Virus record (IMG/VR): IMGVR_UViG_3300031963_000016
Span: 97,712-161,711 of that record
From: a virus
Reading direction: 5' to 3' (one strand)
DNA length: 64,000 nt
Shown: positions 16,452 to 57,869 of the stretch, in pieces
How the letters are laid out: each line of letters begins with the position of its first letter
Position numbering within the stretch: position 1 is the stretch's first letter
Translations under genes and position numbers: made by a program
The notes under the pieces: model-generated
The model's input: the letters and a program-made list of their open reading frames with translations, nothing else
Database searches by the model: none
Told to the model about the DNA's origin: nothing

Positions 16452-16486
16452 TATAACATGTTCAATTGTATGAGGAATTTTTATGT

Positions 16487-17035
16487 ATGGCTCATTATGT
16501 TAATAACGCTGACTTTCTGCAGGCACTAATAGAATATAGAAAAAAGTGTAAAGATGCAGAATCAGAAGGTAATTCAAAACCCATTGTCAGCAACTATATC
16601 GGTGAATGTATTCTTAAGATTGCAACTCATCTTTCTTACAAACCAAATTTTATAAACTATTCTTATCGAGATGATATGATTCTCGATGGAGTGGAAAATT
16701 GCATTCAATACATAGATAATTTCGATCCAAGTAAGTCTAATAATCCTTTTTCTTATTTCACACAGATTATCTACTATGCATTCTTAAGAAGAATTGCTAA
16801 AGAAAAGAAACAATCTTATATCAAAGGCAAGTTAATACAAGATATGCCATTTGATTCTTTTGAATTACAAGATAGCGATGACGACAATGAGTTTCGTAAC
16901 GCATACTTAGATTTTATGCAACAGAATCATACATTTGATGATACATTTATGGAACGTAAAAAAGCCAAACGTAAAAAGAAACAAGTTGATTTAGATGATT
17001 TTTTAGGTGATAATAATGGCGAACTCGATAACTGA
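16487..17035 (+). CDS. gp55: Late-transcription sigma factor
   Basis: HYVNNADFL, YIGECILKIA, NYSYRDDMILDGVENC, NPFSYFTQI. Confidence 0.96.
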   Translation: MAHYVNNADFLQALIEYRKKCKDAESEGNSKPIVSNYIGECILKIATHLSYKPNFINYSYRDDMILDGVENCIQYIDNFDPSKSNNPFSYFTQIIYYAFLRRIAKEKKQSYIKGKLIQDMPFDSFELQDSDDDNEFRNAYLDFMQQNHTFDDTFMERKKAKRKKKQVDLDDFLGDNNGELDN

Positions 17036-25358: not shown

Positions 25359-26531
25359 GTGATGGCAAAAGTTGATGAAATTTTTAGGCGTGAGTTTGAG
25401 ATTAAACTCTTTGAGATGTATCCTGATGTGCAATCTAAGGGAACAGTGAGTCGTCCCCAGTTGCTTGATGTTATGTCTAAACTCAAGACTGAGAAATATC
25501 CCCTGTGGCTTATGAAAGATAAAGTTGGTCGTGGTTTGTATGCCATTAATGGTGGTACCAATCGTGCTGCTGTTGTTGGTAATACTGCTTTGAAAGATAA
25601 TCCTGTGAAACAAGAATCCTTTGTTGTCGACTATACCAACACTTCAGCATTGATTCCCCGAAAAGATCCTAATTTTGTGCCATTTGGCAACTATGGTGAT
25701 TTGGAAAACATCATTAAGTCTGGAATCTTTTATCCTGCATATATCAGTGGACCAACTGGTAATGGTAAGTCCACGATGGTTGAGCAGATTTGCGCTAAAC
25801 ACAAGAAACCTCTCATTCGTGTTAACCTCAACATGATGACTGATGAGGAACAACTCATCGGATCGAAGACTCTCGAGGATGGTAACGTGCAAATTGTAGA
25901 AGGTCCAGTGCTTATTGCAATGCGCAATGGTACAACTCTGCTTCTTGACGAGATCGATGCTGGATCTGCAAATACTCTGTTGTGTTTGCAACCGATTCTT
26001 GAGGGTAAACCTTATTACTTTAAACTCAAGAATGAGATGATTGTTCCAGCTGCTGGATTCAATGTCATTGCGACTGCGAATACTAAGGGTAAGGGTTCAG
26101 ACGATGGTCGTTACATCGGTACGAATATTTTGAACGAAGCATTCTTGGAGCGATTTGCCGTAACATTCGAGCAGGATTATCCCAATGCAAAAGTAGAAGT
26201 TAAGATTGTAAAGAATCTCATGGAAACTTATTCATGTGTCGATGAAGAGTTTGCAGAGACACTCGTAAAGTGGGCTGATGCAATTCGCCGAACTTTCGAG
26301 GATGGTGGTGTGGATGAAACGATTACAACTCGTCGTATGATTCACATTGTTCGTGCCTTTGCGATTTTTAAAGATCGTGCTAAGGCAGTGCAACTCTGTT
26401 GCAATCGTTTTGACTCTGCAACAAAGACTGCATTTATCGATTTGTTCGATAAAGTTGCAAATCCACAGCCTGAACCTGAAGTAGTTGCAGAGGAACCCAA
26501 GAAACCTGAGTCAGATGAAATCCCCTTCTGA
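25359..26531 (+). CDS. MoxR/CobS-like AAA+ ATPase
   Basis: GPTGNGKS, RVNL, LLLDEID, ATANTKG, NEAFLERF. Confidence 0.9.
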   Translation: MMAKVDEIFRREFEIKLFEMYPDVQSKGTVSRPQLLDVMSKLKTEKYPLWLMKDKVGRGLYAINGGTNRAAVVGNTALKDNPVKQESFVVDYTNTSALIPRKDPNFVPFGNYGDLENIIKSGIFYPAYISGPTGNGKSTMVEQICAKHKKPLIRVNLNMMTDEEQLIGSKTLEDGNVQIVEGPVLIAMRNGTTLLLDEIDAGSANTLLCLQPILEGKPYYFKLKNEMIVPAAGFNVIATANTKGKGSDDGRYIGTNILNEAFLERFAVTFEQDYPNAKVEVKIVKNLMETYSCVDEEFAETLVKWADAIRRTFEDGGVDETITTRRMIHIVRAFAIFKDRAKAVQLCCNRFDSATKTAFIDLFDKVANPQPEPEVVAEEPKKPESDEIPF

Positions 26532-27888: not shown

Positions 27889-27929
27889 GTTTATACATAG
27901 TAATGTAGTTTTATTTGACAGGAGAAAGT

Positions 27930-28589
27930 ATGAAACTTAGTAAAGAAACAGTTGCTCTTTTTAAGAACTTTGCGGGAATTAACAGCAATCTTCTTTTAAA
28001 GAATGGCAACAAACTCGCAACAATCTCTGGTCAGAAGAATGTGATGGCAGATGCAACTGTAACAGAAACATTCCCTGACTTTGGAATTTATGATCTAAAC
28101 GAATTCCTAGGTGCGATGTCTTTGTTCGATGACCCCGAACTCACCTTCCAAGACAAGTATGTATCAATCAGTCAAGGCAACATGAAGATTAAATTCTTCG
28201 CTGCAGAACCATCTGTTTTGACTGCACCTCAGAAAGCAATCACATTCCCTGAAGCAGAAATTTCTTTTAATATGTCAGCATCGATGCTGAACATGATCCA
28301 TAAGACTGCCTCTGTTCTTCGTGCAGCAGATGTGTCAATTGTTGGTGATGGAACTACTATTACTGCAGTTGTTGGAGACAAAAAGAATGCTACTGGGAAC
28401 TCTTTCAGTGAAGCAATTGGTACCACTGATAAAGCATTCAAAGTTAATCTGAAGGTAGAAAATCTAAAGATGCTTCCAGGTGATTATGAAGTATCTATTT
28501 CCAGCAAGAAAATTTCTCGTTTTAAATCTCCAAGCAGCGATTTGGTTTATTATGTTGCTGTGGAAGCTGATTCCACTTTTGATTTCTAA
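27930..28589 (+). CDS. gp45: Sliding clamp
   Basis: MKLSKETVALFKNFAGINSNL, FGIYDLNEFL, YYVAVE. Confidence 0.95.
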   Translation: MKLSKETVALFKNFAGINSNLLLKNGNKLATISGQKNVMADATVTETFPDFGIYDLNEFLGAMSLFDDPELTFQDKYVSISQGNMKIKFFAAEPSVLTAPQKAITFPEAEISFNMSASMLNMIHKTASVLRAADVSIVGDGTTITAVVGDKKNATGNSFSEAIGTTDKAFKVNLKVENLKMLPGDYEVSISSKKISRFKSPSSDLVYYVAVEADSTFDF

Positions 28590-37220: not shown

Positions 37221-37789
37221 TGTTTATTTTTGATGTAGAAACTCTTGGTGTAGAATCTAATGCTGTCGTTCTATCGGCAGCATTGATTCATTTTGACCCA
37301 GAGAAACGACCAACATATCAAGACTTGCTTGATGACGCATGCTTTGTTAAGTTCAATGTACAACATCAAGTTGATGCTGGAAGAACTATGAGTAAATCTA
37401 CTCTTGACTGGTGGAAGGAACAGCATCGTTATGTTAAAGAAGTTAGTCTGCATCCTTCCAGAGATGATGTGAGTATGAAAACTGGAATTAAAATATTGCA
37501 TGAATATATGGCAAAGTTTCCAAATGCAGAAAAGCAAACTATGTGGGCGAGGGGTTCATTGGATCAATTAGCAATAGACTCACTAGCAGTGCAAGTTGGC
37601 ATGCAAGAAATTACAGGGTATAATATGTGGCGTGATGTTCGAACTGCAGTCGATATTCTCTACGGTACTACTAATGGCTATGTAGATATAGACCATCCTC
37701 TCTTCAAACGACATGAAGTTATCAAGCACCATCCTGTTCACGACTGCGCACTGGACGCAATGCAACTAATGTATGGAAAAGCAACTTAA
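37217..37789 (+). CDS. dexA: DEDD 3'-5' exonuclease (DexA-like)
   Basis: IFDVETLG, WARGSLD, RDVRT, HHPVHDCALD. Confidence 0.8.
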   Translation: MMFIFDVETLGVESNAVVLSAALIHFDPEKRPTYQDLLDDACFVKFNVQHQVDAGRTMSKSTLDWWKEQHRYVKEVSLHPSRDDVSMKTGIKILHEYMAKFPNAEKQTMWARGSLDQLAIDSLAVQVGMQEITGYNMWRDVRTAVDILYGTTNGYVDIDHPLFKRHEVIKHHPVHDCALDAMQLMYGKAT

Positions 37790-40278
37790 TGGAATTTTAT
37801 ACTAATGTAGCACCATATGGCGACAAGATGTTCGTCATTGGTTATGATAAAGGAAGACGATATATGCGTAAGATAGATTTCTATCCTACGCTTTTTGTCA
37901 CTTCTAAGTCCAAGTCTAAGTGGCAGACTTTGGAAGGAACATATGTCGATGAAATGAAACCTGGAAGTATTAAAGAAACTCGTGACTTCGTTAAGAAGTA
38001 TGAGGATGTTTCTGGTTTCGCAATCTATGGTAACACTAACTACGCATATCAATACATTAGCGATACATATGACAGTGATGTCAATTGGGACATGGAACAG
38101 ATTCGTGTGTTCTCTCTTGACATTGAAACTGCGACTGAGTCTGGGTTTCCAGACATTCGTAGTGCTAATGAAGAAATTCTTCTTATCACTATTAAAGATA
38201 TTCATTCCAAAAAGATTGTCACATGGGGTGTGAATCCATACGAAACCAAACGAGAAGATGTCACATACTATCGCTGCATAGACGAACATCAATTACTAAA
38301 AGAGTTTATCATCTGGTGGCAACAAAACTATCCAGATGTTATCACTGGCTGGAACACCGACTTCTTCGATGTACCATATCTTATTAAACGAATCTCTAGA
38401 GAACTCGGTGAGACATTCGCAAAGAAGTTAAGTCCATGGGGTCTTATTAATGAGAGAAATACATATATCAAAGGCAATGAAGAACTTCATTATGATATTT
38501 CTGGCATTAGTCAGCTTGACTATCTTGAGTTGTACAAAAAGTATACATACACCAAACAAGAATCCTATCGACTTGACTATATTGCACAAGAGGAACTAGG
38601 TGAACGAAAGAAAGAGAATCCTGGAACTGACTTCCGAGATTTCTATACTAATCACTGGGATAAGTTTGTTGAATATAACATTCACGATGTGGAACTTGTA
38701 GAAAAACTCGAAGACAAGATGCGTCTAATCGAACTACATATCACCATGGCATACAATGCTAAGATTAACTTCGAAGATGTCTACTCACAGGTTCGTATGT
38801 GGGATACAATTATCTACAATCACCTGCGTAAGAAAGGTATTGTCATTCCCATGAAAGTATCCAATGGTGGTAAAGATGCTCAATTTGAGGGTGCATATGT
38901 AAAAGACCCACTCATTGGTCAGCATAAATGGATGGCATCATTTGACTTGAACAGTTTGTATCCTCATCTGATTATGCAATACAATATCAGCCCAGAAACT
39001 CTTACGCATGAGAAACTATCTGTGACAGTTGATAAACTTCTCAACAAAGAGGTTGACACTGACTATTGTAAGCGTAGAGATCTAGCATTGACTGCGAATG
39101 GTTGGTGTTATCGTAAAGATATTAAAGGTTTCATGCCTGAACTGATGGAACAGATGTATGTCAATCGCTCCAAATTTAAGAAACAGATGTTGAAGATTCA
39201 ACAAGAGTATGAAAAAGATAAGTCACAGAAACATCTGTTGAAAGATATTTCTCGTCTTAACAATCTGCAGATGGCAATGAAGATTGCTCTCAACTCTGCT
39301 TATGGTGCGATGGGTAATCAGTACTTCCGTTACTTTGATATTCGTATGGCTGAAGGTATTACCACAAGTGGTCAGTTGTCGATTCGTTGGATGGCAAATG
39401 AGTTTAATCGCTATATGAATCGTTTGATGAAAACTACAGATGAAGACTATGTTATTGCCATTGACACAGACTCAATCTATCTAACGATGGAAAACCTTGT
39501 AGAGAAAGTTGCTGCTGATAAAGATACCGTAGGAAAGATTAAATATATGGACAAAGTCTGTGAAGAAATCTTTCAACCATTTATTGATCAAACATATCAG
39601 AAATTAGCAGATTACATGAACGCATATGCGCAGAAGATGCAGATGAAGCGAGAAGTTCTTGCTGACAAAGCAATCTGGACTGCCAAGAAACGATACGTAA
39701 TCAATGTACACAACTCTGAGGGTGTACAATATGCCAAACCTAAAATTAAAGTCATGGGTTTGGAAATGGTCAAATCATCTACTCCTGCTGTCATTCGTGA
39801 TAAACTAAAAGATTCTTTAGATGTAATTCTAAAAGGTAATGAATCTGATTTGCATACATATGTGAGAGAATTTAAAAAAGAGTTTGATAAGATGGCTGTT
39901 GAAGATATTGCTTTCCCTCGTTCTTGTAATGGTGTTAAACAGTATGCAGGATCGCCGATCTACATTAAGGGAACACCAATTCAAGTTCGTGGTGCATTGC
40001 TTTACAATCATCATCTGAGAAGACTTGGATTAGATAAAAAGTATCAGGCTATTCGAGATGGAGACAAAATCAAGTTTGTTTATCTACGAACTCCAAATCC
40101 GATTCAGGAAGATGTGATTGCTTTTAGCCAACATCTACCAAAAGAACTAAAATTGGAAACATACATAGATTATGACAAACAATTTGAAAAAGTTTTTCTT
40201 GATGCCTTACAAATTGTAATCGAACCTTTGAAATGGAAAACACAGGAGGAATCTTCATTGGAAGACTTCTTTGGATAA
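37789..40278 (+). CDS. gp43: Family B DNA polymerase
   Basis: DIET exonuclease motif, SFDLNSLYP, KIALNSAYG, DTDS; C-terminal SLEDFFG. Confidence 0.98.
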   Translation: MEFYTNVAPYGDKMFVIGYDKGRRYMRKIDFYPTLFVTSKSKSKWQTLEGTYVDEMKPGSIKETRDFVKKYEDVSGFAIYGNTNYAYQYISDTYDSDVNWDMEQIRVFSLDIETATESGFPDIRSANEEILLITIKDIHSKKIVTWGVNPYETKREDVTYYRCIDEHQLLKEFIIWWQQNYPDVITGWNTDFFDVPYLIKRISRELGETFAKKLSPWGLINERNTYIKGNEELHYDISGISQLDYLELYKKYTYTKQESYRLDYIAQEELGERKKENPGTDFRDFYTNHWDKFVEYNIHDVELVEKLEDKMRLIELHITMAYNAKINFEDVYSQVRMWDTIIYNHLRKKGIVIPMKVSNGGKDAQFEGAYVKDPLIGQHKWMASFDLNSLYPHLIMQYNISPETLTHEKLSVTVDKLLNKEVDTDYCKRRDLALTANGWCYRKDIKGFMPELMEQMYVNRSKFKKQMLKIQQEYEKDKSQKHLLKDISRLNNLQMAMKIALNSAYGAMGNQYFRYFDIRMAEGITTSGQLSIRWMANEFNRYMNRLMKTTDEDYVIAIDTDSIYLTMENLVEKVAADKDTVGKIKYMDKVCEEIFQPFIDQTYQKLADYMNAYAQKMQMKREVLADKAIWTAKKRYVINVHNSEGVQYAKPKIKVMGLEMVKSSTPAVIRDKLKDSLDVILKGNESDLHTYVREFKKEFDKMAVEDIAFPRSCNGVKQYAGSPIYIKGTPIQVRGALLYNHHLRRLGLDKKYQAIRDGDKIKFVYLRTPNPIQEDVIAFSQHLPKELKLETYIDYDKQFEKVFLDALQIVIEPLKWKTQEESSLEDFFG

Positions 40279-40320: not shown

Positions 40321-40572
40321 ATGAAAGCATTAAAATTTTATGCTGATTGGTGTGGACCATGCAAGGGGTTGAGTCAAGTCATTAAAAATGCTGGTGATAA
40401 AGTCACCATGGAAATTGAAAGTGTTAACATTGACGAAAACATTTTCATTGCACAAGATTACAAAGTTCGTTCTGTTCCAACTATGGTCATAGTAGATGAT
40501 AGTGGAAGTGAGATTCGTAGAAAAGTTGGAAGCATGAATGAAGAACAGTTACTAGAATTTCTGAAAGGTTAA
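40321..40572 (+). CDS. Thioredoxin
   Basis: FYADWCGPCK, VRSVPT. Confidence 0.93.
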   Translation: MKALKFYADWCGPCKGLSQVIKNAGDKVTMEIESVNIDENIFIAQDYKVRSVPTMVIVDDSGSEIRRKVGSMNEEQLLEFLKG

Positions 40573-40574
40573 TT

Positions 40575-41627
40575 ATGAGCATCTTAGATAAAATTAAAAA
40601 GAATAGCACCATTAAAGAATCTGCGATTCTTTCTGAATCTAAATTCTTCACTAAGAAGGATATGATTCCAACTAGCATTCCAGTTATTAACGTAGCACTT
40701 TCTGGTCGTCTTGATGGCGGTCTTACTCCAGGATTGACTATGTGGGCTGGTCCATCAAAACATTTTAAGACTGCTTTCAGCTTATTGATGGCAAAATCTT
40801 ATTTGGACAAATACGAAGATGCAGCACTTCTTTTTTATGATTCTGAGTTTGGTACTCCGCAGTCTTATTTCGATTCCTTTGGTATTGATACTGATAGGGT
40901 TGTTCATACTCCAATTACTGATATCGAGCAATTAAAGTTTGATATTATGCAACAATTACAAAATGTTGATCGTGGTGATAAACTTATGATCGTTATTGAT
41001 TCGATCGGCAATCTTGCATCTAAGAAAGAAGTTGAGGATGCATTGGAACAAAAGGCAGTTGCTGATATGAGTCGAGCAAAACAACTCAAGTCTTTATTCC
41101 GTATGGTAACGCCACATTTGACGATGAAGGATGTTCCTATGGTTGTAGTAAATCATACATATAAAGAGATCGGTATGTTCCCCAAAGATATTGTTGGTGG
41201 TGGAACTGGATCTTATTATTCAGCTGATAACATCTTTATCTTGGGTCGCCAGCAAGAGAAAGATGGAACCGAAGTTACTGGTTATAACTTTATCATTAAC
41301 GTAGAGAAATCAAGATATGTCAAAGAAAAATCTAAGATACCTGTTAGCGTATCTTTCGATGGTGGTATTAGCAAGTGGTCTGGCTTACTCGATCTCGCTC
41401 TTGAGTCTGGGCATGTAATCAAACCAAAGAATGGGTGGTATTGTAAGGCAGGTGAAGAAAAGAATTACAGAGAAAAGGATACAGAAACCAAAGATTTTTG
41501 GATGCCTATTCTTATGGACAAATCCTTTTATGATTTTGTAAAAAACAAATACTCAATCGGGGTTGGTGATATGGTAAAGGCAGATGACTTGGATAAAGTT
41601 CTTGAAGAATTAGAATTTGATGAGTAA
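40575..41627 (+). CDS. uvsX: RecA-like recombinase
   Basis: AGPSKHFKT, FYDSEFG, DSIGNLAS, GGTGSYYSAD. Confidence 0.96.
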   Translation: MSILDKIKKNSTIKESAILSESKFFTKKDMIPTSIPVINVALSGRLDGGLTPGLTMWAGPSKHFKTAFSLLMAKSYLDKYEDAALLFYDSEFGTPQSYFDSFGIDTDRVVHTPITDIEQLKFDIMQQLQNVDRGDKLMIVIDSIGNLASKKEVEDALEQKAVADMSRAKQLKSLFRMVTPHLTMKDVPMVVVNHTYKEIGMFPKDIVGGGTGSYYSADNIFILGRQQEKDGTEVTGYNFIINVEKSRYVKEKSKIPVSVSFDGGISKWSGLLDLALESGHVIKPKNGWYCKAGEEKNYREKDTETKDFWMPILMDKSFYDFVKNKYSIGVGDMVKADDLDKVLEELEFDE

Positions 41628-41952
41628 ATATTCAGACTTGCCCATACTTGTAAAAGAGAATAATGGGTTACAAGAAGTAGAATTGACAGAAGGAGAATTC
41701 TCAGGTATAATCTATACCTATGGGAAAGTAGAGTTCGTTGAAGACAATTCAAATGAACACGTGAAACTTTCCTTTGAGTATGACATTGTAAATCTTAATA
41801 ACAAAGTTATTAAAGACACCAAACAATTTGAAACATACATAGGTAAAATACTTGAGAATTTAATTCAAATCGGTATTGAAAATAATAGCATTACATATAC
41901 AGGCGGAGTTGATGAGAATAGAGCAAAAGATTCTGGCAAGTCTGATTTATGA
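41620..41952 (+). CDS. gp40-like protein
   Basis: Between uvsX and gp41 as in T4; YTYGKVEF...LSFEYDI. Confidence 0.5.
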   Translation: MSKYSDLPILVKENNGLQEVELTEGEFSGIIYTYGKVEFVEDNSNEHVKLSFEYDIVNLNNKVIKDTKQFETYIGKILENLIQIGIENNSITYTGGVDENRAKDSGKSDL

Positions 41953-43300
41953 TGAGCAATATTGTCGCAAAGTAATTCCATTTATTAAAAGAGAGTATTT
42001 CGCAGATCGCAAAGAATCAATCTTAGCATATGAAATTGTTGAATTCTTTAATAAGTACAACAAACCTGCAAGTAAAGAAGTTCTCTCAATCGAAGTTTCG
42101 AATAGAAAAGATCTAAACGACAAAGAGTTAGCTGAACTAACTGATTACATTGGTAAGTTACAGCATGAGTCATCTAATGAAGATTGGGTATTAGAAAATA
42201 CAGAAAAGTTTTGTAAAGATAGAGCAGTTTATAATGCGATTCTTGCTTCAATCAAAATCATTGAGGGGAATGACAAGGTACATACGAAAGATGCTATTCC
42301 TAGTATTCTTTCTGATGCTCTTGCCGTTTCATTTGATAATCACATTGGTCATGATTACTTGGATGATCATGATGCGAGGTTTGATTTTTATCACAGGGTT
42401 GAAGAGAAGATTCCTTTCGACTTGGAGATGTTCAACAAAATCACCAAAGGTGGATTGAGTAAGAAAACTCTAAACATTGCACTGGCTGGTACTGGTGTTG
42501 GTAAGTCGCTGTTTATGTGTCACGTTGCTGGTTCTTGTTTGAATCAGGGCAAAAATGTTTTATACATAACAATGGAAATGGCAGAAGAAAGAATCGCTGA
42601 ACGTATTGATGCGAATCTTTTAAATCTGACAATGGATGAACTCAAAGTTATTGACAGAGATATTTTTGATAATCGTATTGATAAAATCTCTAAAAAGACT
42701 CAGGGTAAGTTAATTATCAAAGAGTATCCTACTGCTGGTGCACATGCTGGTCATTTCCGAGCATTATTGGAAGAACTTAAACTTAAAAGAGAGTTTAAGC
42801 CAGATATTATCTTTATTGATTATCTAAACATTTGCGCAAGTCAAAGACTGAAGCAGGGATCAAATATCAATTCTTATACATATGTAAAGGCAATCGCAGA
42901 AGAGTTGAGAGGGTTGGCAGTAGAGTATAATGTTCCAATTGTATCAGCTACACAAACTACTCGATCTGGTTTCACAAACAGTGATCCAGGACTAGAAGAT
43001 ACTTCTGAATCTTTTGGACTACCTGCAACTGCTGACTTTATGTTTGCTCTGGTGAGTAATGAAGAATTAGAGGCGTTGAATCAGATTATTGTGAAACAGC
43101 TGAAGAATCGTTACAATGATCCTAGTTTTTATAAACGATTTGTGATTGGTATTGATAGAGCAAAGATGAAACTATATGACACTGAGGCATCTGCCCAAGA
43201 AGGGTTGTCTGATGCTGGCCAGGATGATGAACCAGTGTTTGATAAATCATCGTTTGGTAAACGACAAAGAGCAGAATCGTTCGATGGATTTAAGTTTTAG
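41912..43300 (+). CDS. gp41: Replicative DNA helicase
   Basis: AGTGVGKS, ITMEMAEE, IFIDYLNI, SATQTTRSG, SESFGLPATAD. Confidence 0.96.
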   Translation: MRIEQKILASLIYDEQYCRKVIPFIKREYFADRKESILAYEIVEFFNKYNKPASKEVLSIEVSNRKDLNDKELAELTDYIGKLQHESSNEDWVLENTEKFCKDRAVYNAILASIKIIEGNDKVHTKDAIPSILSDALAVSFDNHIGHDYLDDHDARFDFYHRVEEKIPFDLEMFNKITKGGLSKKTLNIALAGTGVGKSLFMCHVAGSCLNQGKNVLYITMEMAEERIAERIDANLLNLTMDELKVIDRDIFDNRIDKISKKTQGKLIIKEYPTAGAHAGHFRALLEELKLKREFKPDIIFIDYLNICASQRLKQGSNINSYTYVKAIAEELRGLAVEYNVPIVSATQTTRSGFTNSDPGLEDTSESFGLPATADFMFALVSNEELEALNQIIVKQLKNRYNDPSFYKRFVIGIDRAKMKLYDTEASAQEGLSDAGQDDEPVFDKSSFGKRQRAESFDGFKF

Positions 43301-43310
43301 GAGAAAAGAT

Positions 43311-44636
43311 ATGGCAGTAAAAGTTATTATCGCTGACAGAAAATATGATTGTTCTCACCTTCAGGGACAGTTTGTAGATGAACAACATTATGATATATTG
43401 GTTGAAGAAGATTGCGATGTTTATGCTCCAGCTGGAAGTTTTGGAGATGAAACTAATGATGAACAGAGAATTATCTTTAAGTTTCGCAAAAATTATTTTA
43501 CTGAAGAAGAACAACGACAGGCATATCTTGGTCTAAGAGAAGCAGCAACTGAGACACAGAATCGTGGAATGGCTGCTGGTCCGAGAGAAGGTAAACTAGG
43601 TAATCGTGAATGGGTTACAGACTATGAGTTTGATGTCATTGACTATTTCAGCAATCCGAAATCTAATCTATTTGGTAGTGATCCTATTGAAGAAATCAAA
43701 GCACAGCACGCAAACAAACCACCACAACCATCTAATAAAAATAATGTATGGTCAATTCTGGCAGTCAAGCAAGACGAATTTGACTTTGAACGCTGGGTAG
43801 AAAAAACTAAGTTGTTGACACCAGATCAGCAACGAGATGAAACTCGTCGTATGGTTCAGAAATATATTTGTCAAACTACCTATGCCAATGGAGTGATGTC
43901 TGGTATCGCTGGGTGGTTTGATCGTTATCCTCGCATTCCTTATGGTCGTGCAACATCTTATACTGCTAATAATCTAGAAAAATTTAAGATGTCATATCCT
44001 TTTTTACAGCATCTGGCAAAAGGATTTAAAGATTTACTCCCATGGCGTTATTCTAATCAGATGAAAGCAGCAAATAAATTGGATCCAGAATTTCTAGTTC
44101 CTGGAACACCATTTACTACAATTACTGTTAATAAAACCTTTCGCACTGCTGCACATTACGATGCAGGTGATTTAAATGAGGGACTGTCAAATCTTCTAGT
44201 TCTTTCTAATGATGGTAGATTTACTGGGGGATATTTAATTGCACCAGAATATCGTGTTGCAGTTAATGTTCGTCCAGGAGATTTGTTACTCATTAACAAT
44301 CATGAAGTTATGCATGGCAATACTCCTATCGTTTGCGAAGAGGGTTCAGAGCGTGTTAGTTTGGTAGTATATTTCCGTGAGAAAATGCTAGAGTTGGGTA
44401 GTAAAGCATACGAAGATTGTCGTAGAGAATATGTAGAATCACGCAGACTTAATAAAAATCATCCTGGACACAAACATGATGATGGAACAGATCGTCATCT
44501 TTGGAATGGTGTCAGCCCTGGAATGTGGGAAGAGCAAGAATGGTATGACTATTGTGAATCAAAAGTTGGTCGTGAAGAACTAATTAAGATGCATCCACAA
44601 GCAGCAAATACTTCACTAGAGGAATTCTTCGGATAA
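43311..44636 (+). CDS. TET/JBP-family 2OG-Fe(II) dioxygenase
   Basis: FTTITVNKTFRTAAHYDAGD (HxD), GDLLLINNHEVMHGNT (distal His), RVSLVVYFRE (2OG-binding Arg). Confidence 0.82.
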   Translation: MAVKVIIADRKYDCSHLQGQFVDEQHYDILVEEDCDVYAPAGSFGDETNDEQRIIFKFRKNYFTEEEQRQAYLGLREAATETQNRGMAAGPREGKLGNREWVTDYEFDVIDYFSNPKSNLFGSDPIEEIKAQHANKPPQPSNKNNVWSILAVKQDEFDFERWVEKTKLLTPDQQRDETRRMVQKYICQTTYANGVMSGIAGWFDRYPRIPYGRATSYTANNLEKFKMSYPFLQHLAKGFKDLLPWRYSNQMKAANKLDPEFLVPGTPFTTITVNKTFRTAAHYDAGDLNEGLSNLLVLSNDGRFTGGYLIAPEYRVAVNVRPGDLLLINNHEVMHGNTPIVCEEGSERVSLVVYFREKMLELGSKAYEDCRREYVESRRLNKNHPGHKHDDGTDRHLWNGVSPGMWEEQEWYDYCESKVGREELIKMHPQAANTSLEEFFG

Positions 44637-45343
44637 TGTGCGCAGTTATTGGTACTATCCTGCAGCAACCAACAAAGCAGGACTTCTCTATGATTCGTCG
44701 TGTATTCCAGGAATCTAAAATTCGTGGAATGCACGCTACTGGTATTTCGTTCTTACCAAAGTGGAGCGACAAAATTGAGACAATTCAAGAGCCAATCCCA
44801 GCAGACAAATTTGTAGAGAAGTATTTACATAATGATAATTTATCAGATATGATTGCTGACGATGGCAATCTTTATATGATTGGTCATTGCCGTTATTCAA
44901 CCAGTGATTTGGAATTTAACCAGCCATTGTATTACAACGAAAAGTCTATTGTACACAATGGTGTCATTACGCAAGAACTACCAGAAAACTGGAAAGAACT
45001 TTATGGGTATGATTGCATTACAAAGAATGATAGTGAGTTAATATTACATTCAAGAGATCCTTTAAGAGAGTTTTCTCACATGTCTATGGGTGCAGTGGAA
45101 CTATATGTATACAAAAAGATGCGATTCTATCGCAATGGTAAGCGACCATTATATTTGTCTTGTATCTCAAACGGATGTATAGTTACATCTACAGCTAACA
45201 TTGCACTTCGTGCAGAAGTTCCTGGAAGACCAGTTGAGTCATTAATGAATCATTATATTACATTTGACGATCAACTTGCAATGATGATTGAGAAAGTTGA
45301 TGTTATGAACTCGGTAGATTTACAACATTATGAATTTCGTTAA
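44636..45343 (+). CDS. Stand-alone class II (Ntn) glutamine amidotransferase/amidohydrolase
   Basis: Cys2 nucleophile, RGMHATG, GHCRYST, NQP, HNG, NDSE. Confidence 0.85.
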   Translation: MCAVIGTILQQPTKQDFSMIRRVFQESKIRGMHATGISFLPKWSDKIETIQEPIPADKFVEKYLHNDNLSDMIADDGNLYMIGHCRYSTSDLEFNQPLYYNEKSIVHNGVITQELPENWKELYGYDCITKNDSELILHSRDPLREFSHMSMGAVELYVYKKMRFYRNGKRPLYLSCISNGCIVTSTANIALRAEVPGRPVESLMNHYITFDDQLAMMIEKVDVMNSVDLQHYEFR

Positions 45344-45971
45344 TTCTACAAAAGTAGAAGAGTTAATTAAAAATAGTCCAGCTGGTAAGAATACTAAGTT
45401 CTTATCTGCTGCACACTCATTATGGTATCGTTTTCATAATTATGATAAAGCACCGCCAATGGCATTAGAAGATAATGGTGAAGTTGTTTCATTAATCTTC
45501 GCAACGCATAACAGAGATGGATATGCTAATCTATATGAGATAGTAACACTTGAGGGAAAAGAAGGAAATGGATACGCATCAAAATGTTGGGAAGAGTGGA
45601 TCCGTTACGCTACCGAAGATCGTGGTTCTAAAAGACTTAAAATATCTTGTACCCCATCTTCAGTCACTTGGCATTACCGAAATGGTCTCATCTTCTGGGC
45701 AGTTGACCCCACAGGCTCGCTCCGCTCTGATCAACCTCTTTTTGCCACTCGTGCTGAACAACTCGCATTTAGATCTTCTGCTATTATCAGTCCAACATCG
45801 GCTCTACCGCCATATAAAGCAAGAGAGCAATTCCGAGCAGAAGGATTAGAAACCTATAAATGGGGTGATAAGAAGAAAGCAAAAACACAAGCTGCAATTG
45901 ATGCAGTTGGATCTGCTTGGTTAAGAGAAGCATTAATGGAACAGCCATCTTTAGAAGAATTTTTAGTATAA
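45330..45971 (+). CDS. GNAT-family acyltransferase
   Basis: LYEIVTLEGKEGNGYASKCW (motif A-like), SSVTWHYRNG (motif B-like). Confidence 0.65.
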   Translation: MNFVNSTKVEELIKNSPAGKNTKFLSAAHSLWYRFHNYDKAPPMALEDNGEVVSLIFATHNRDGYANLYEIVTLEGKEGNGYASKCWEEWIRYATEDRGSKRLKISCTPSSVTWHYRNGLIFWAVDPTGSLRSDQPLFATRAEQLAFRSSAIISPTSALPPYKAREQFRAEGLETYKWGDKKKAKTQAAIDAVGSAWLREALMEQPSLEEFLV

Positions 45972-46990
45972 TGGATTATCGTTTAACAGAAAATCGTAGA
46001 GAAGCATTTATTCGCTGGTGGGTTTGGTCATTAAAATATGATGACTGTGATCCAGCAGTATGGTGCACCAATTATCTACATAAAAGATACGAACATAATG
46101 ACGAACAACGTCTTTGGTTAGCGTGGCTGTATGGTAATACTTACTATCTACCAACTGCATGGATTCTTATGAATGAGTTTCCTGATTTTGAATTAGCCAC
46201 AGTAGATCGTATGGAACAATGGAACACTGCGAACTATAAACGTCTACGTTATCAAACTGACACAAAATGGAATAAAGGACATCTTCCTTCCATGTTTGCG
46301 TCATATCAAAAGTTTATTGGAGATAGAACACAACGAGAGGCATTGGAGAATTATTATGGAAATACTGAAGAAGAGAACTTTGATTCTCTGTGGAAAGTCA
46401 TTAAGTCTGGGTTGTATAAGTTTGGTCGCTATTCCACTTGGTTTTATCTTCAGCATCTTAAGCATACTGCTGATATCCGTATTTCTCCTACTAGTCTCAT
46501 GCTGGATGATTTTGATGGCTCTCGCTCTCATCGTAATGGACTTCTTCTTTCCATTGGCAGAGATAACGATTATGATAGAAAACTCACTGCAGGAGACTAT
46601 GCGAATCTTGAGTCACAAGCGAAAGAGATACTTTGTGAGACCCAAGCAAGATATCCAGAACTTGCATCGCAGATAGATTATTTTACGATGGAAACTTGTT
46701 TGTGTTCATTTAAGAAAATCTTTCGTGAGAATCATGGTCGCTATCTTGGATATTATCTTGATCGACAGGCAGAAGAAATTATGCAATGTGAAAAAGATGG
46801 ATGGTATGGAATTGACTGGGATGTTCTCTGGCAGTCAAGAGAAGAAACGATTGATTTAAGATTAGACCATAAACGTGGTATTGATAAAGAAAGATATAGT
46901 TCATTTTTAAGAACTGGCAAAATTGAAAATTTAGAATGGATGTTTGATGATGAAGAACCTATACTTAGTGGATTGGAGGCATTTGTATGA
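45971..46990 (+). CDS. Amino acid:DNA transferase / aGPT-pyrophosphorylase family
   Basis: DDCDPAVW, QRLWLAWLYGNTY, FGRYSTWFY (HhH-like), METCLCSFKK, GRYLGYYLD; clade not resolved. Confidence 0.72.
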   Translation: MDYRLTENRREAFIRWWVWSLKYDDCDPAVWCTNYLHKRYEHNDEQRLWLAWLYGNTYYLPTAWILMNEFPDFELATVDRMEQWNTANYKRLRYQTDTKWNKGHLPSMFASYQKFIGDRTQREALENYYGNTEEENFDSLWKVIKSGLYKFGRYSTWFYLQHLKHTADIRISPTSLMLDDFDGSRSHRNGLLLSIGRDNDYDRKLTAGDYANLESQAKEILCETQARYPELASQIDYFTMETCLCSFKKIFRENHGRYLGYYLDRQAEEIMQCEKDGWYGIDWDVLWQSREETIDLRLDHKRGIDKERYSSFLRTGKIENLEWMFDDEEPILSGLEAFV

Positions 46991-47406
46991 GTACCGATAG
47001 TGATAATATGAATAATATTATAGATGTATCTTCTGGTATAACTTCTACCATGTCAATGGGACATAGTGATACTATTACAATTACATCAGGGCTACCTTCT
47101 AATTACGGAACTATTGCAATTGGAATTGTTACAGAAGATATTTTAGATCGTTATTCATTTAATCGTTTCACTGTCGATCATAAAGTACAGGAACATGAGT
47201 TGATGAAACTCAAGGAGACTGTTCCAACGTATGCCGATGAAATCAAAGAAAATTTGGCTAAGAATATGGCTCGAGATATAATGAAGAAAATGACATTTAC
47301 CAAAAGGAAAGATTTAGATGCTGATGTGCATCATTTCTTGGGAAGAGTCTGGGTATTTACAGAGGATGAATTGAAAAAACTTATTGAGGAAGTGAAAAAT
47401 GCTTAA
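46987..47406 (+). CDS. Hypothetical protein within the modification cluster
   Basis: Coupled to both neighbours. Confidence 0.65.
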   Translation: MSTDSDNMNNIIDVSSGITSTMSMGHSDTITITSGLPSNYGTIAIGIVTEDILDRYSFNRFTVDHKVQEHELMKLKETVPTYADEIKENLAKNMARDIMKKMTFTKRKDLDADVHHFLGRVWVFTEDELKKLIEEVKNA

Positions 47407-48007
47407 TGAACGTGTTGGTGTGATGGATAGTATTTCGATCCAAGTCACTCGTGCAGAACCAAAGAAACGAAAATTGATAGCTGTTGGTGGTTCTCCAGGA
47501 ACAGGTAAGACTACTCTTTTCCGTAAGTTTATGGAAGGTAAGACTTGGGAATCAGTCGAACCAAAGAAAATGCTCCCTGCAATGTATTGTAAAGAACTAG
47601 ATTTGTACGTTCTAGGTAAATACGAGGAAGGTGAGACTTTCGCTGGAACAGATCGTCTTTCTATGGCTGTCCAGCCTATCGCTCAGTGTTTCGTCACCGA
47701 ATGTACCTCAAATATTCTCTTCGAGGGAGACAGAATCTTTAATCAGTCTTTCTTAGAGTTCGCTATGGGGCTACCTAATACAGACCTCCAGGTGGTCTTC
47801 CTAAAAGTCCCTAAAACAGTCCTCGAATCCCGATACAAGGATAGAGGATCCGACCAGTCCGAGCAATTCCTAAAAGGTCGGGAAACTAAATATAGTAATC
47901 TATTGTCAAATTTTGAACTGATGCCCTATATTACTGAGTTTAATAACACCAACTTAGAGGAGCAGGGGAAGGTTCTTGCATTCCTGGAGAAGCAGTTAGT
48001 CCAGTGA
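47399..48007 (+). CDS. P-loop kinase, 5-hmU DNA kinase-like
   Basis: GGSPGTGKT, VLGKYE...FAGTDRL, ILFEGDR. Confidence 0.75.
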   Translation: MLNERVGVMDSISIQVTRAEPKKRKLIAVGGSPGTGKTTLFRKFMEGKTWESVEPKKMLPAMYCKELDLYVLGKYEEGETFAGTDRLSMAVQPIAQCFVTECTSNILFEGDRIFNQSFLEFAMGLPNTDLQVVFLKVPKTVLESRYKDRGSDQSEQFLKGRETKYSNLLSNFELMPYITEFNNTNLEEQGKVLAFLEKQLVQ

Positions 48008-56942: not shown

Positions 56943-57419
56943 ATGGCTGGCAAACACATTATCTCTCATACAGAAACTGAAATAGTTTTTAAGTGTTATA
57001 TCACTGATTCAAATGGTGGAACGATTGATCTAAGTTTACAGAATGATATGACAAAATCTACTCAGGTATATGTCACACCAACATCTATTCCAGATGAGAC
57101 GAGTGGTGCTTTCGTTCAATACACTGGTTCAAGAGTTTATATCACTGAACTTTGGTGGGGATGCAAACACAATAAACATTGGGATGTTGCTAGATTACTA
57201 GATGCTACTCCTACTCTACACAATCATTACTATTTGGTTAATGCTGGCTATTATGATTACACTGGATTTGCTGATAGAATTTACGCTAATAAAGATCTTA
57301 GATTAACATCAGATGGTCCAGCACATTTAATTATTAAATTAAGAAAAGAAGGCTGGAATCCAAAAGTTGAGACCGCAGTATTTGGTCCATACGATAATGA
57401 ATCAGTTGTTGGAAGTTAA
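56943..57419 (+). CDS. Hypothetical; paralog of 9824..10285
   Basis: LRKEGWNPKVETAVFGPYD. Confidence 0.7.
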   Translation: MAGKHIISHTETEIVFKCYITDSNGGTIDLSLQNDMTKSTQVYVTPTSIPDETSGAFVQYTGSRVYITELWWGCKHNKHWDVARLLDATPTLHNHYYLVNAGYYDYTGFADRIYANKDLRLTSDGPAHLIIKLRKEGWNPKVETAVFGPYDNESVVGS

Positions 57420-57428
57420 GGATAAACT

Positions 57429-57869
57429 ATGGAACATGTTGCTGCTTTACAAGTGAGTCTAGGAAATACTTTTGTTATGTATTTCAAAGCACACTCATAT
57501 CATTGGAATGTCGAGGGTTCTGACTTTGCTCAGTATCACGACTTCTTAGGTAAACTATATGAAGAATTGTATGGTGCAGTAGATCCTATGGCAGAAGAAC
57601 TTCGTGCTTTAGATGTATATGCACCACAAAGTTTAGACGCTATGGTTAGACTTTCTACAATTGAAGAGGATTCTGAAAGACCAACTAAACCAGCAGAAAT
57701 GTTTGGTAAGTTATTGGCTGCAAATAACGAGGTCATTGAATCCCTAAATAAATTATTCAAGGCAGCTGATGCTGCAAACGAACAGGGGCTAGCAGATTTT
57801 GCTGCTGGAAGAATAGATATTCACAAGAAACACGGATGGATGTTAAGATCCTTCATGAGAGGCGAATAA
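57429..57869 (+). CDS. dps: Dps (ferritin-like, DNA protection)
   Basis: KAHSYHWNVEG, HDFLGKLYEE, DPMAEELRAL, HGWMLRS. Confidence 0.92.
   Translation: MEHVAALQVSLGNTFVMYFKAHSYHWNVEGSDFAQYHDFLGKLYEELYGAVDPMAEELRALDVYAPQSLDAMVRLSTIEEDSERPTKPAEMFGKLLAANNEVIESLNKLFKAADAANEQGLADFAAGRIDIHKKHGWMLRSFMRGE

Follow-up and report, generated by a model that had tools for sequence, protein, structure and literature searches.

We analysed the C-terminal ends of DNA-modifying enzymes encoded in a 64,000-nucleotide stretch of phage DNA (positions 97,712 to 161,711 of IMG/VR record IMGVR_UViG_3300031963_000016, hereafter the window), which belongs to a complete T4-like phage genome of 161.7 kb that has terminal repeats and a G+C content of 36%. 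The DNA polymerase of this phage, the family-B enzyme gp43, is encoded at 37789..40278 (+ strand, as are all the genes located in this paragraph and the next) and ends in SLEDFFG (40255-40275), which was taken as the reference clamp-binding tail. Downstream, a TET/JBP-type 5-methylpyrimidine dioxygenase, probably a thymine dioxygenase (43311..44636, called TET below), ends in SLEEFFG (44613-44633), one conservative residue apart from the gp43 tail. A GNAT-family acyltransferase (45330..45971) ends in SLEEFLV (45948-45968), and an amino-acid:DNA transferase (AADT, formerly aGPT-Pplase, 45971..46990) ends in a weaker version, SGLEAFV (46967-46987). The late sigma factor gp55 (16466..17035) carries DLDDFLG at 16988-17008, eight residues before its end. 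The sliding clamp gp45, the proposed docking platform, is encoded at 27930..28589 (phrog_223 processivity factor, E = 1.2e-71; its homologues match PF09116). All five motifs had been listed in an initial annotation of the window, and the translations bear out each of them.

TET matches PF12851 (Tet_JBP) with 86.2 bits, against a curated cut-off of 34.9, and its iron-binding His-x-Asp...His residues, H282, D284 and H335, are invariant in 46 sequences. AADT scores 80.7 bits with PF18724 (ADDT, curated cut-off 26.2) and has homologues in 379 phage records, including Salmonella phage ViI. The GNAT assignment is a marginal pass, with 23.2 bits for PF00583 (Acetyltransf_1) and a cut-off of 20.7. Three other products of the operon have no polymerase-type tail: an Ntn-type glutamine amidotransferase (44636..45343; PF13522, 33.8 bits), the product of a 139-residue open reading frame (ORF, 46987..47406) that matched neither a Pfam nor a PHROG family at the thresholds applied, and a P-loop kinase (47399..48007; PF18751, Ploopntkinase3, 33.4 bits for a cut-off of 27). 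The latter is probably the 5-hydroxymethyldeoxyuridine (5-hmdU) DNA kinase of the pathway, and its family differs from the HMUD2 and HMUDK_hel families of ViI-like phages. No C5-methyltransferase was found in the genome. When the phage collection was searched, megablast with the operon gave no match and tblastn with GNAT gave no homologue. Three of the longest ORFs were too long at their 5′ end, by the window segments 43176-43310 (TET), 45917-45970 (AADT) and 27915-27929 (gp45). The TET start is likely to be 43311, because homologues align from there, and that of gp45 27930, because the alignments with relatives begin at residue 6 of the longest ORF. For AADT, the likely start is the ATG at 45971, which overlaps the GNAT stop codon.

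The tails are short, and their likeness was compared with chance by shuffling the last 40 residues of each protein and scoring ORF ends with a strict and a loose pattern. Over the whole genome, 3 of the 237 ORFs matched the strict pattern and 4 the loose one, for shuffled expectations of 0.0 and 0.002 respectively. The codons used for the tails differ from gene to gene, so the likeness is maintained in the proteins and does not come from a DNA repeat. Clamp-binding tails are textbook knowledge for gp43, gp55 and gp33, and a crystal structure of the RB69 clamp with such a peptide reportedly exists. The best solved match of the window gp43, PDB 9e5y (898 residues), aligns with it end to end, its last residues falling over the tail, and these are identical to the tail of T4 gp43. 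T4 gp55 has the same layout as the window gp55, the motif being followed by a few residues, so that both window proteins carry the motif in the same positions as in T4. A published account (PMC7892883) covers the motif by which gp55 and gp33 bind the clamp, as well as the hydrophobic patch on each gp45 protomer that accommodates it. As in these T4 and RB69 proteins, the ends seen here are short hydrophobic or aromatic peptides, at or near the C-terminus and on a linker, like those that bind the gp45 patch.

We then followed the tails in 80 related viral contigs, T4-like as well, whose TET proteins are 66-83% identical to that of the window. The tail was kept in all 39 gp43, 80 TET, 47 GNAT and 47 AADT sequences available, and was absent from the amidotransferase (0/66), the kinase (0/42), the 139-residue ORF (0/30) and the next ORF, also in the operon (0/38). 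The initial annotation had made conservation of the tails in T4-like homologues a test of its proposal, and the proposal passes it. Among the 5747 ORFs of these loci, 214 matched the tail pattern, and 212 of them were gp43 (39), TET (79), GNAT (47) and AADT (47). One of the two remaining matches was a group-1 glycosyltransferase of 449 residues, encoded directly after TET (L052:2682-4031) and ending in a polymerase-type tail. More broadly, the TET family comprises 2592 database proteins at E ≤ 1e-10, and the tail stands at the end of 119 of the 120 closest. Within the TET tail, S435, L436, E437, F439 and F440 are nearly invariant and residues 430-434 are not; in the AADT tail, G, L and F do not change across 33 sequences, and the five residues upstream are variable. 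Fixed or nearly fixed key residues after a variable stretch are what a short linear motif carried by a linker looks like in sequence. The amidotransferase C-termini of the 66 relatives are variable and show no tail pattern. As for the kinase, its end is a conserved stretch in the 42 relatives, but it is helix-like and does not match the pattern, and it was rejected as a tail.

In the contig where the glycosyltransferase was found, its gene replaces the amidotransferase, GNAT and AADT set after TET.

Looser patterns also caught a thioredoxin, a baseplate hub protein and a neck-like protein. The thioredoxin, an ORF of 83 residues at 40321-40572, was rejected as a tail carrier, its end being the last helix of the fold, and the baseplate hub ORF (genome positions 57088-57816) was rejected as structural. 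The neck- or adaptor-like ORF at 245-1204 of the window, structural too, has an end of the P-L-D-F-F type that resembles the tail and was treated as a coincidence.

The strongest evidence comes from a comparison between lineages, done with the window phage and six other clamp-encoding phages (C48C1, DLP6, Cr30, ViI, Vibrio phage 1.244.A and Cygsa01). In C48C1, DLP6 and Cr30, which are T4-like, each TET end follows the variant found on its own polymerase, and the TET-associated glycosyltransferases of DLP6 and Cr30 have their own polymerase's variant too. ViI uses an unrelated Leu/Met-rich tail, common to its polymerase, its DNA kinase gp243 and its AADT gp247; a second AADT, gp160, has a looser form of it, and in a census of the whole ViI genome the strict form was present in only four ORFs. 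In the Ackermannvirus 1.244.A, a basic pair followed by LW closes five proteins: the polymerase, the AADT, a small protein and two DNA-kinase proteins. In Pseudomonas phage Cygsa01 a further variant is common to the polymerase, two kinase proteins and the AADT. Among the seven polymerase tails, that of the same phage was the closest for 11 of the 17 enzyme tails, and only 2 of the 5040 permutations of the polymerase tails among the seven phages reached the observed total fit. The TET and GNAT tails of the window score highest against their own gp43 tail, and so does AADT, although weakly. Judging from these sequences, orthologous enzymes of different phages differ in their tails, and each tail goes with that of the phage's own polymerase. 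We conclude that the tails exist and are under selection at the protein level, that only the polymerase and modification enzymes acting on DNA have them, and that from lineage to lineage they change with the polymerase tail.

In C48C1, a UDP-galactopyranose mutase encoded two genes after TET (L003:11339-12349) is tail-less, as expected for an enzyme whose substrate is a sugar nucleotide and not DNA.

Another comparison concerned phages with and without a clamp, also suggested in the initial annotation. A profile built from 114 gp45 sequences matched all five tail-positive comparison phages tested, and none of the three phages having tail-less TET homologues (HTVC112P, P12024L and S-CBWM1). The TET of pelagiphage HTVC112P has a core 48% identical to that of the window but stops about 77 residues earlier, and its gene lies beside that of a ParB_N protein. 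Phage thymine dioxygenases of one subclass have been reported to need a ParB-like partner, and some members without ParB were inactive in E. coli (PNAS 2026, PMC13229309). Those ParB-dependent enzymes belong to the same family as the window TET and have similar neighbours (amidotransferase, P-loop kinase, AADT), and there a partner of the DNA-clamp type is needed for activity on double-stranded DNA. In contrast to them, no ParB_N match was found in the complete genome of the window phage at E ≤ 0.1, in a search where controls did match, and the window TET instead goes on for about 77 further residues at its C-terminus, the last of which form the gp45-type tail.

Taken at the level of sequence, these data make it very likely that the C-terminal peptides of TET, GNAT and AADT are sliding-clamp-binding motifs like the polymerase tail, and the three enzymes are putative clients of gp45. 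In the mechanism that we propose, each tail, on its short variable linker, would insert into the hydrophobic pocket of a gp45 protomer. Clamps are loaded at primer ends and stay on the replicated phage DNA, and the post-replicative enzymes would be concentrated via the clamp on new phage DNA, scanning it in one dimension. From the enzyme families and the pathway of ViI, the order of reactions could be as follows: TET would oxidise thymine to 5-hydroxymethyluracil, the untailed P-loop kinase would phosphorylate the latter, AADT would swap the phosphate for an amino acid, and GNAT and the amidotransferase would finish the adduct. What we infer here is the physical contact with gp45, the moment of modification with respect to the fork, and the reaction assigned to each enzyme. 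Modification had been placed at or just behind the fork in the initial annotation; this may be so, and clamps that stay behind on copied DNA would do just as well. The recruitment of modifying enzymes to gp45 by a polymerase-type tail, its central proposal, has gained conservation, co-variation and the tail-less TETs of phages without a gp45 match, binding itself being a prediction.

That prediction comes from modelling the gp45 trimer with the last 40 residues of AADT, with alignments for both, the only one of the tails for which the proposed structure prediction was run. The score was 0.41, for 0.00 in the best of three controls, with at least 78% of the contacts agreeing between runs and a partner pLDDT (predicted local distance difference test) of at least 42. 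The mark applied is passed by 58 of the 80 solved complexes and by 2 of the 110 mismatched pairs; at scores of 0.60 or below, it is passed by 7 of the 80 solved complexes and by both of the passing mismatches. We take the result as weak support. A similar clamp-peptide complex has been solved, so likeness rather than binding may account for the pass.

Several observations weigh against recruitment to the clamp as the role of the tails. In the AADT tail of the window the second aromatic residue is missing, and its score against the polymerase tail of the same phage is only 17. The Cr30 AADT is tail-less, and of the motif only a short remnant is left at the end of the Cr30 TET. The kinase, which would act on DNA between TET and AADT, is tail-less in the window lineage, which means that tethering is not obligatory for every DNA-acting step; the kinases of ViI-like phages do have tails. 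With tails on TET, GNAT and AADT and none on the kinase (42 relatives) and the amidotransferase (66 relatives), the 'clamp-tethered assembly line' imagined at the start is therefore incomplete, and the expression overstated. The homologue of the late-transcription coactivator gp33 (PF16805, 72.5 bits; G000:C1:53130-53345, outside the window) has no polymerase-type tail, whereas T4 gp33 has one (PMC7892883), so that not every expected clamp client shows the tail. An AlphaFold2 model of TET, computed from a 46-row alignment, was too poor to judge whether its tail is exposed (mean pLDDT 55.5, predicted template modelling score 0.44). Finally, the T4 alpha-glucosyltransferase, which could have been a precedent, was rejected as such: it has no polymerase-type tail, and its interaction with gp45, proposed from in vitro work, was not reproduced in vitro or in vivo with C-terminally tagged enzymes (bioRxiv 10.64898/2025.12.06.692756).

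We also considered that the tails bind gp45 but have mainly a regulatory role, competition with the polymerase, gp55 and other clients for the clamp pockets timing replication, late transcription or packaging relative to modification, or the clamp acting as an allosteric activator rather than a tether. The clamp is a hub shared by the polymerase and the late-transcription factors, the window gp55 carries the same motif, and ParB, another DNA clamp, activates related thymine dioxygenases rather than simply tethering them. All this would suit regulation, but the tail is found on enzymes of several unrelated families that have nothing in common except acting on DNA bases, which fits recruitment to the substrate better than regulation of the clamp, and we hold the regulatory role to be unlikely. 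Somewhat less probable still is a signal meant for something other than gp45, which the polymerase would happen to share: a peptide that docks on a different replisome protein, or a tag for degradation or localisation. Binding to gp45 is deduced from sequence and modelling, and the helicase and UvsX have conserved C-terminal peptides of their own, so that such docking peptides are common in this genome. Against this, the polymerase tail aligns with the end of PDB 9e5y, and hence with that of T4 gp43, and gp55, a known clamp client, carries the same motif. The TET homologues that lack the tail occur in phages without a gp45 match, and the modelling placed the AADT tail on gp45, weakly, with zero-scoring controls.

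Could the resemblance have no function at all? The ends might be recombination leftovers of the 3′ end of the polymerase gene, or a chance likeness of short hydrophobic ends, since the motifs are short and loose patterns also match the thioredoxin, the baseplate hub and the neck-like protein mentioned above. But practically none would be expected by chance where three to four were observed, the tail is kept in every homologue of 80 loci, with protein identities of 66-83%, and the codons differ between tails. In addition, independent variants are found in four other lineages, always matching the local polymerase. A functionless resemblance is accordingly highly improbable.

Recruitment of the modification enzymes to the clamp remains the reading that we prefer, and it can be extended. 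In clamp-encoding phages, gp45 might be the functional counterpart of ParB for thymine dioxygenases, and more generally a hub to which post-replicative hypermodification enzymes dock through lineage-specific tails. We put this forward tentatively, as a possibility that we would not yet bet on. If true, nothing but the clamp may have been missing for those ParB-less dioxygenases of this clade that showed no activity in E. coli, a tail matching the polymerase would be a predictor of unknown DNA-modifying enzymes from sequence alone, and one trimeric clamp may carry as many as three different enzymes, like a tool-belt.

How do these observations relate to known systems? In T4 and RB69 the clients are replication and transcription proteins, whereas the candidates here are a dioxygenase, an acyltransferase and an amino-acid transferase, and elsewhere DNA kinases and glycosyltransferases; the kind of motif is known, and the class of clients proposed for it is new. 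An enzyme that travels on the clamp and modifies the DNA while it is being replicated was also the idea put forward for the T4 alpha-glucosyltransferase, so the notion itself is not wholly new, but the argument made here rests on an explicit, conserved and co-varying tail. A eukaryotic parallel is DNMT1, which binds PCNA by a PIP-box. There too, a short clamp-binding peptide recruits a DNA-modifying enzyme to newly replicated DNA, but the clamp and the motif are others, the reaction is maintenance methylation and not hypermodification, and a single enzyme is concerned instead of several of one pathway. Closest in chemistry is ViI, where 5-hmdU in DNA is taken over by a DNA kinase and then an AADT, as would be the case here (NAR 2021, PMC8989533); gp243 was among the predicted nucleobase kinases that yielded a phosphorylated product in vitro in that study. 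ViI differs in making 5-hmdU before replication, where the window phage has a TET/JBP enzyme instead, and its tail variant is unrelated in sequence to that of the window. Clamps and C-terminal tails are not mentioned in PMC8989533, the main paper on thymidine hypermodification, and our literature search returned no paper on clamp-binding tails of hypermodification enzymes, only remarks on co-occurrence.

Hypermodification after replication has to cover a large share of the thymines of a genome that is copied in minutes, while sparing host DNA. No explanation of how the enzymes find new phage DNA is offered in PMC13229309 or PMC8989533. A clamp-docking tail would be a simple physical answer, and one that can be tested in cultured phages, namely ViI (with gp243 and gp247), DLP6 and Cr30. 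A reason is suggested, too, for the inactivity of some phage thymine dioxygenases expressed on their own, and C-terminal tags may mask an interaction of this kind. As a practical rule, an ORF end that matches the tail of the local polymerase would flag new DNA-modifying enzymes: here it picked DNA kinases, glycosyltransferases and a small Cys-rich protein.

The latter, phrog_4789 (70-88 residues), has the local polymerase-type tail in the two Ackermannviruses, ViI (L091:30358-30567, minus strand) and 1.244.A (L094:11541-11804), and may be an unrecognised clamp client. Further protein ends were noted in the window. Upstream of the clamp genes, a MoxR/CbbQ-type AAA+ ATPase (25359-26531; PF07728, phrog_249) has an acidic end with a terminal Pro-Phe. 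The recombinase UvsX (40575-41627) has a conserved acidic end with one Phe in many relatives, which may be a docking tail for a recombination partner. The gp41 helicase (41876-43300) has an aromatic end of the F-x-G-F-K-F type, conserved in nearly all of 79 relatives, by which it probably docks on some other partner in the replisome.

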